A stretch of 5,802 nt of DNA, taken from IMG/VR virus record IMGVR_UViG_2706794681_000007, one strand, 5' to 3'. Positions 5,308-5,437 of the stretch are shown here, piece after piece (position 1 is the stretch's first letter; each line of letters opens with the position of its first letter). Both the position numbers and the translations under genes were made by a program. The notes beneath the pieces were generated by a model, which saw only the letters and a program-made list of their open reading frames with translations, searched no databases and was not told the origin of the DNA. The stretch is from a virus. Its lineage: Duplodnaviria; Heunggongvirae; Uroviricota; Caudoviricetes.

Positions 5308-5336
5308 TTGACAATAATTTTCATTTCCATTAAAAA
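5308..5336 (+). promoter_or_regulatory. Candidate sigma70 promoter on the plus strand (TTGACA - 17 bp - TAAAAA)
   Basis: Consensus -35 TTGACA at 5308-5313, a 17-bp AT-rich spacer, and the -10-like hexamer TAAAAA at 5331-5336 (4/6 match). Prediction only. The near-palindromic TTGACAA also reads as TTGTCA on the minus strand. Confidence 0.3.
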
Positions 5337-5371
5337 AGATCGCGTAGCATTCTTAATTCATGAGGAACTTT

Positions 5372-5437
5372 ACCCGCCAGCAATCTGAGTAGCGAAAGCT
5401 GTTCATCCCCAATGTTTTTGCTGGCGGGTCCTTTTTT
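5372..5437 (+). terminator. Long-loop hairpin followed by a T6 tract on the plus strand (candidate terminator or structured RNA element)
   Basis: 11-bp perfect stem (5372-5382 ACCCGCCAGCA / 5419-5429 TGCTGGCGGGT) enclosing 36 nt that can form an inner stem capped by a GAAA tetraloop (5391-5400 AGC-GAAA-GCT). Followed by CCTTTTTTC (5430-5438). No U-tract follows in the minus-strand orientation. Confidence 0.35.

Follow-up and report, generated by a model that had tools for sequence, protein, structure and literature searches.

In pathogenic E. coli, small RNAs (sRNAs) encoded in prophages, such as AsxR, AgvB, PasA-D and PapR, rewire host regulation and virulence; the catalogue of these molecules comes from only a few strains. 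PasA and PasC, the 'pathogenicity associated small RNAs' of EPEC E2348/69, have EHEC homologues (EcOnc51/52), and both are Hfq-dependent, the presence of PasC having been verified experimentally and that of PasA by Northern blotting (Pearl Mizrahi et al. 2021, PMC8550237; Zhu, Shabalina & Storz 2026, bioRxiv 10.64898/2026.05.13.724894). PasA is 85 nt long, with a common 3' end and divergent first 40 nt, and its gene lies on the strand opposite to that of its neighbours, between an esterase gene and a class II holin gene, in the arrangement '> < >' (PMC8550237; bioRxiv 10.64898/2026.05.13.724894).

Two further systems are close enough to be considered. At the moron site of lambdoid prophages, which separates Q from the lysis genes, there are convergent genes for sRNAs that bind Hfq; among these, AsxR and AgvB (EcOnc01-03 of EHEC prophages) have a conserved 3' module of ~42 nt and variable 5' ends, with AsxR running antisense to the late stx2 transcript of Stx phages (Tree et al. 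2014, PMC4104026). PapR of UPEC UTI89 is an Hfq-dependent sRNA encoded in accessory DNA of ExPEC, EHEC and Shigella, and its pairing region extends into the terminator stem (Khandige et al. 2015, PMC4546395).

Here we describe a candidate of this kind in a stretch of 5,802 nt from a Caudoviricetes genome (IMG/VR record IMGVR_UViG_2706794681_000007), which will be referred to as the window. A preliminary description of its sequence had proposed a structured plus-strand sRNA at 5308-5437, antisense to the leader of the late operon. Our preferred reading, which we hold with about even confidence, is that 5308-5439 on the plus strand is an autonomous sRNA gene of the moron region, expressed in the lysogen, whose product of ~95 nt carries an Hfq-type 3' module and acts in trans.

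Genomic context of the unit

The genes of the window are, as had been stated, all on the minus strand, and they constitute the late region of a lambdoid prophage (Table 1). A run of masked bases (N) at 3159-3980 falls inside a small-terminase/HNH-like ORF. The candidate unit sits in a non-coding stretch of 545 nt between the holin gene and the end of an IS911 element. Homology between the window and the intact prophage of CFSAN029787 ends at 5742, i.e. at IS911, which indicates that the tRNA cluster, the methylase gene and the Q gene of this relative have been cut off in the window.

The preliminary description placed the unit where Q-dependent late transcription should begin, and this assignment has to be given up. 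Q lies ~3.4 kb upstream of the holin gene in the intact relative L001, and hypothetical genes, a DNA methyltransferase gene and four tRNA genes are found in between. The late promoter of lambda adjoins Q, so pR' should be equally distant from the holin, and the unit is therefore located in the accessory ('moron') region right before the lysis cassette, not where late transcription starts.

The unit is separated from the holin gene by a strong intrinsic terminator of the late strand, 31 nt ahead of the holin start codon (Table 1). Its stem contains breaking mismatches in remnants that have no holin, such as the CFT073 island and the ColV plasmids. Terminator-like hairpins of the late strand are also present at 5537-5555 and 5599-5618 (minus), one of which may end the tRNA cluster transcript of the intact relatives, and a second conserved block, common to all five lineages discussed below, spans 5547-5575. 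A promoter-like site of the minus strand (5498-5470) was set aside, since inspection of the alignment showed that lineage D does not keep its spacing.

We found no conserved protein-coding frame across the region, and a minus-strand ORF of 97 aa (5403-5696) was discarded as not conserved. In L004, a prophage of lineage D (see below), a RefSeq 'hypothetical protein' (WP_000502162.1, a 63-aa PGAP ORF at 4932-5123, minus) is annotated across the unit. It is not conserved either and is probably an annotation artefact, since the corresponding frame of the window lacks a start codon and is broken by several stops.

Table 1. Coordinates of the features discussed in the text; positions are those of the window unless a locus is named.
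Feature	Position	Strand	Remarks
TerL	1429-3162	-	Pfam
Portal gene		-	part of the window's late genes
Rz	4023-4499	-	Pfam
Rz1	4085-4267	-	
Lysozyme	4484-4981	-	Pfam
Class II (phage 21 S-type) holin	4981-5196	-	Pfam PF04971, E = 1.5e-35
Late-strand intrinsic terminator	5227-5263	-	stem 5263-5237, T-run to 5227; terminator scan and fold z = -4.0
-35 hexamer TTGACA	5308-5313	+	invariant in all five lineages
-10-like hexamer TAAAAA	5331-5336	+	17 nt after -35
Predicted single-stranded, AU-rich 5' part of the RNA	5343-5371	+	unpaired in centroid fold; start predicted at ~5343
Outer stem, 5' arm	5372-5383	+	12 bp, pairs with 5418-5429
Inner hairpin	5386-5393/5398-5405	+	8 bp, loop GAAA at 5394-5397
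C-rich single strand UCCCCAAUGUUU	5406-5417	+	12 nt in the large loop, unpaired in all folds
Outer stem, 3' arm	5418-5429	+	invariant in all variants
T6 tract	5432-5437	+	after CC; kept in all five lineages
Second hairpin and T-rich tail	5443-5464	+	terminator-like, -14.1 kcal/mol; possible back-up terminator
IS911 end	5741-5802		62 nt; IS911 copies of phages Sf6 and SfII and of many genomes match at 100%
PapR-like 3' module	L004 5363-5403	+
PapR-like 3' module	L198 2057-2122	-

Anatomy of the candidate sRNA gene

The promoter elements are as the preliminary description gave them, and the TTGACA hexamer is the sole copy on both strands of the whole window. Its combination with the 17-nt spacer and TAAAAA (TTGACA-N17-TAAAAA, 5308-5336) did not arise in any of 200 shuffles. 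No lineage departs from TAAAAA or from the 17-nt spacing; the sole indel falls 3' of the hexamer. Note that TAAAAA is without the usual, highly conserved final T; this is the reason why a promoter scanner omitted the site, and it makes the strength of the putative promoter uncertain. A lineage B copy on a metagenome contig (L341, OJWO01000210.1) has a different upstream junction, which again supplies TTGACA, a 17-nt spacer and TTTATT just ahead of the conserved part.

The stem begins 35 nt beyond the promoter. The 11 bp described earlier (5372-5382/5419-5429) are in the correct register and the full stem has 12 bp. It is rich in G+C and is followed by CC and U6, so that the large-loop hairpin has the appearance of an intrinsic terminator (for which a U-tract of ~6 or more is the criterion), with an unusually large 'loop' of 34 nt. 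Within this loop, the segment UCCCCAAUGUUU falls inside the most conserved 30-nt windows of the region and is a possible seed. Two elements are specific to the plus strand: the inner hairpin, because it contains G.U and U.G pairs, and the terminator signature, because the minus strand carries AAAGTT after the stem, which bears out the earlier remark on the T6 tract. The second hairpin further downstream is not a conserved part of the unit: 55% of its columns are variable, and lineages C and D have a weak version of it or none.

The plus strand of 5366-5440 folds with -28.8 kcal/mol (z = -5.8), and none of 200 shuffles was as stable; for the minus strand the respective values are -27.4 kcal/mol and z = -3.9. 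The structure is thus far beyond chance, and folding energy alone hardly separates the strands.

From these elements we envisage the following course of events. Host sigma-70 RNA polymerase would start ~6-7 nt past TAAAAA, near 5343, and would transcribe the variable AU-rich 5' part and then a conserved hairpin of 58 nt, made up of the 12-bp stem, the GAAA-capped hairpin and the C-rich strand. Termination at U6 would yield an RNA of ~95 nt; the coordinates (~5343 to 5437-5439) predict 95-97 nt, in agreement with the 90-100 nt estimated previously. The terminator hairpin together with the U-tail is of the type of 3' module that binds Hfq, and by analogy with PasA, PasC, PapR and AsxR the RNA may act in trans on mRNAs of the host or the prophage, or on other sRNAs, during lysogeny.

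Distribution and sequence conservation

Scans of genomes, viral sequences and metagenomes returned only five lineages of the unit, ~85% identical to one another. Lineage A is the window type and includes intact prophages, e.g. in CFSAN029787, and Shigella flexneri. Lineage B is located in ExPEC islands ~2 kb from papI (CFT073, at NC_004431.1 3440876-3441063; JJ2434; EC958), and lineage C in ColV-type plasmids, beside iss and Rz/Rz1 remnants. Lineage D comprises intact prophages, e.g. in EC14, and lineage E two viral contigs. Among 5426 complete E. coli genomes, 1427 (~26%) carry the unit. Most of the copies are clonal and reside in ExPEC islands and ColV plasmids, the ColV variant being the commonest.

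In the intact prophages (lineages A, D and E) the unit is always positioned ~100-250 nt upstream of a class II holin gene and reads away from it. The holin and endolysin genes have been lost in lineages B and C, and the unit is kept there with its promoter; on ColV plasmids it is ~450 bp from the serum-survival gene iss. Some plasmids have a copy interrupted by IS1; in one of these (pCE20-122k, L009 ~1595-1604) the IS1 is inserted at the GAAA loop, from which it follows that the unit is dispensable on at least some ColV-type plasmids.

Region 5290-5480 had no match among the INPHARED phages, distant mode included, and no extra lineage with stem variation emerged from 62 genome and 80 viral loci with related holins or from pattern scans of viral and metagenome sequences. 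A survey of 138 holin-upstream regions, carried out with a crude terminator finder that missed large-loop hairpins, recovered the architecture in the window type and the PasA type only. Most other class II holin loci that were sampled have neither the window unit nor PasA upstream.

The alignment of the five lineages reveals an uneven distribution of variability. Variable columns make up 17% of the promoter, 15% of the stem-loop and 10% of the tail, as compared to 35% of the spacer before the promoter, 43% of the 5' part of the putative RNA and, downstream, 55% of the second hairpin and 51% of the next 125 nt. Pairwise differences follow the same trend (2-7 per 70 in stem-loop and tail, 16-23 per 112 upstream, 26-50 per 159 downstream), and a 30-nt sliding window puts the minimum of variability at 5372-5444. 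Judging from the contrast in variable columns, the promoter and the terminator hairpin are more constrained than their surroundings and the 5' part varies freely. A variable 5' part joined to a conserved 3' part is the pattern reported for AsxR/AgvB and PasA.

Within the stems there is little change. Ten of the 12 outer pairs are invariant, one becoming G.U and one A.C; of the 8 inner pairs 6 are invariant and the two lowest are broken in lineage E. The covariation analysis proposed in the preliminary description found no compensatory double change in 29 pairs, among ten distinct variants from the five lineages. As the stems are nearly invariant, this result is uninformative and speaks neither for nor against the structure. 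Two single changes affect the outer stem, and they point to opposite strands: an A-to-G change in L194 gives G.U on the plus and C.A on the minus strand, and a G-to-A change in the ColV lineage gives A.C on the plus and U.G on the minus strand. The earlier argument for the plus strand as the functional one was based on the GNRA loop and the T-tract. The inner hairpin and the T-tract are indeed confined to this strand in the window, but the loop is not conserved, being AAAA in lineage D, and the nearly equal folding energies and the opposed stem changes do not favour either strand.

Comparison with described prophage sRNAs

It is useful to set the unit beside PasA and PasC, with which it has many features in common. 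Both are situated directly upstream of a lambdoid class II holin gene, antisense to the late genes, and both read away from the holin; the distance to the respective holin ATG is 147 nt for the start predicted near 5343 and 214 nt for the 5' end of PasA. They are also alike in size (~80-95 nt), in the TTGACA -35 hexamer, and in a large-loop terminator that combines CGAAAG, a GCCAGC/GCTGGC-based stem and a U-tract. At the E2348/69 locus the recorded 5' end of PasA is 30 nt past the 3' edge of TTGACA, and a 5' part of ~40 nt is followed by the terminator stem AGCCAGCAC/GTGCTGGCT, with CGAAAG in its 17-nt loop, and a U-run. Possible read-through to a second terminator is a further likeness, as is the late-strand terminator just before the holin, which at the PasA locus is at L199 3132-3158. 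A PasC-like module (36.6 bits with the PasA/PasC model) is present directly downstream of PasA in E2348/69, at L199 2764-2847 (minus), which fits the reported minor PasA species of 236 nt.

There are, however, clear differences. The hairpin of the window is twice as long and encloses an additional hairpin, the unit is not flanked by the esterase gene on its far side, and PasA and PasC have been verified by experiment whereas the window unit is a candidate known from its sequence. BLAST comparison of the unit with PasA/PasC gave a non-significant E of about 3, and shuffle-controlled local alignment gave p = 0.056-0.7. A covariance model of PasA/PasC (R1, built from 14 variants), which scores PasA with 109 bits and PasC with 96 bits, did not list the window unit at E <= 10. 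The same model aligned to the lineage D copy L004 (E = 0.47) and the lineage B copy L006 (E = 1.7), in both cases exactly from the promoter-proximal start to the U-tract. We therefore do not assign the unit to the PasA/PasC family: it has the location and orientation of a member, but BLAST, covariance model and shuffles did not demonstrate homology in sequence or structure. The shared GCCAGC/GCTGGC core and CGAAAG apex would be compatible with a distant common origin, which we regard as possible. PP6 and PP10, two other novel sRNA loci of EPEC, have no similarity to the unit.

AsxR and AgvB resemble the unit in their location at the moron site and in combining a conserved 3' module with a variable 5' part, and AsxR also in its anti-late orientation. 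In contrast to the unit, these RNAs are 51-60 nt long and are found beside stx or other moron genes and not beside a holin gene. Their Rfam models (RF02703 and RF02702) have no match in the window, at E <= 1 for the whole and E <= 10 for 5200-5740, and the Rfam scan recommended in the preliminary description produced no match to the unit at the same thresholds. The candidate sRNA is neither in Rfam nor in any genome annotation we inspected. A literature search by sequence string gave no match, and the searchable literature yielded no transcript evidence for the sequence of the unit.

Two other types of RNA were considered and rejected. An antisense RNA of a type I toxin-antitoxin system (Sok-like) should overlap a small toxin ORF on the opposite strand, and the minus strand has no conserved ORF, nor is there a Sok/hok match in Rfam. 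A late leader RNA derived from pR', of the lambda 6S RNA/StxS type, does not agree with the strand of the unit, which is the opposite one, or with the distance of Q (see above).

Possible roles of the unit

Judged from its sequence, the window unit matches a known kind of prophage sRNA in position, orientation, size and architecture. Of the original proposal of a plus-strand sRNA gene, the anatomy stands, and it is joined by the conservation in five lineages and the PasA/PasC/AsxR counterparts; covariation added nothing to it, and the genomic context had been misjudged. If the unit is expressed, it would add a widespread regulator to the prophage sRNA catalogue, present also in well-studied ExPEC strains and ColV plasmids, and it would support the view that outward-reading sRNA genes have a preferred site right before the holin genes of lambdoid phages. 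If it is not, we are dealing with an ordinary conserved terminator-like remnant. The main interest of the unit is its wide spread in pathogenic E. coli and its place beside iss on ColV plasmids. We may speculate further that it represents a new family of domesticated phage sRNAs that are expressed, bind Hfq, are kept after the decay of the prophage and regulate host or virulence genes in roughly one in four sequenced E. coli. This speculation, which draws on the retention of the unit with its promoter in ExPEC islands (CFT073 as well as EC958 and JJ2434, both ST131) and next to iss on ColV plasmids, is tentative and we consider it rather doubtful.

The RNA could be made and nevertheless serve a local purpose. 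The outward promoter and the late-strand terminator (5263-5237) might together hold the lysis genes off in the lysogen, by collision with read-through late transcription or, alternatively, by pairing of the RNA with the late mRNA, 150-240 nt ahead of the holin gene, and subsequent cleavage. The perfect complementarity of the unit to the late transcript and the strong late-strand terminator next to it would suit such a role, the more so as the PasA locus has the same arrangement. However, the RNA does not overlap the ribosome-binding site of the holin gene, complementarity to the start regions of the late genes never exceeded that of shuffled controls, the unit is intact in remnants without holin or endolysin, and late transcription in fact starts kilobases from here. 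In view of the missing reach to the ribosome-binding site, the pairing that is not above chance and the persistence without lysis genes, we think that both routes of such local control are unlikely. A simpler role would be that of an insulator, in which the hairpin and the T-tract stop antisense transcription arriving from plus-strand accessory genes of the lysis region (bor/iss, small ORFs) before it enters the upstream region, and TTGACA is incidental. Relatives do have plus-strand genes in the lysis cassette (iss/bor, a 90-aa ORF), and two successive plus-strand terminator-like hairpins are present in the window. Yet there is no plus-strand gene upstream in the window, the second hairpin is not conserved, and TTGACA, the 17-nt spacing and TAAAAA are as conserved as the hairpin, with 17% variable columns against 35-43% around them, which makes this explanation distinctly unlikely in our opinion.

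The inverted repeat might also belong to the late strand, as a processing or stabilising hairpin of the minus transcript or as the DNA site of a protein. The 12-bp stem forms equally well on that strand, the ColV change preserves pairing on the minus strand only, and the sequence is invariant instead of covarying. We nevertheless rate this role as very unlikely, as the plus strand is the only one on which the promoter, the T-tract and the inner hairpin with its wobble pairs (G.U and U.G) make sense, the L194 change leaves pairing intact on that strand alone, and remnants that have no late operon still conserve the unit. An equally low probability is given to a functionless fossil that is carried along with neighbouring DNA and seems conserved because there are few independent lineages. 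That the lineages are only five, that most copies are clonal (ExPEC islands, ColV plasmids) and that IS1-disrupted copies exist would all be expected of a fossil, but not that, in one and the same alignment, variability is three to four times higher in the flanks than in the promoter and the stem-loop. Finally, the plus transcript contains a frame for a peptide of 10 residues, MRNFTRQQSE, from ATG at 5361 to TAG at 5391. Its start and stop codons are kept in five of five lineages and one of the stem changes is synonymous; still, it has no Shine-Dalgarno sequence, half of its residues vary and the frame is mostly within the stem, so that a coding function is barely credible.

Relation to PapR and STnc100

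The copy in CFT073, ~2 kb from papI, raised the question of whether the unit is PapR itself, and this identity was ruled out by the published primer sequences. The PapR sequence (5' GGGCTGAAGTCCGGAAGTT ... TCTCCCAGCGCGGGCTTTTTTT 3') is absent from the window, and no unit-bearing locus contains a full PapR gene. Lineages D and E have, ~200 nt beyond the unit on the same strand, a module that looks like the 3' end of PapR with its terminator and lacks the 5' part of PapR (Table 1). In L004 this module is back-to-back with a copy of STnc100 (RF02076, 115 bits; 5404-5591, minus, i.e. the late strand), and the two constitute a convergent sRNA pair. STnc100 is, like the candidate, a prophage sRNA of this region, but it is on the late strand, ~260 nt from the unit, and is absent from the window.

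Full-length PapR-like sequences are present in viral contigs that bear PasA/PasC (L233, L241, L259, L266, L290 and L297). In L233 and L266 the PapR-like sequence shares the strand of PasA/PasC and is located ~2 kb past it. PapR, too, thus appears to be part of the prophage region between Q and the holin gene.
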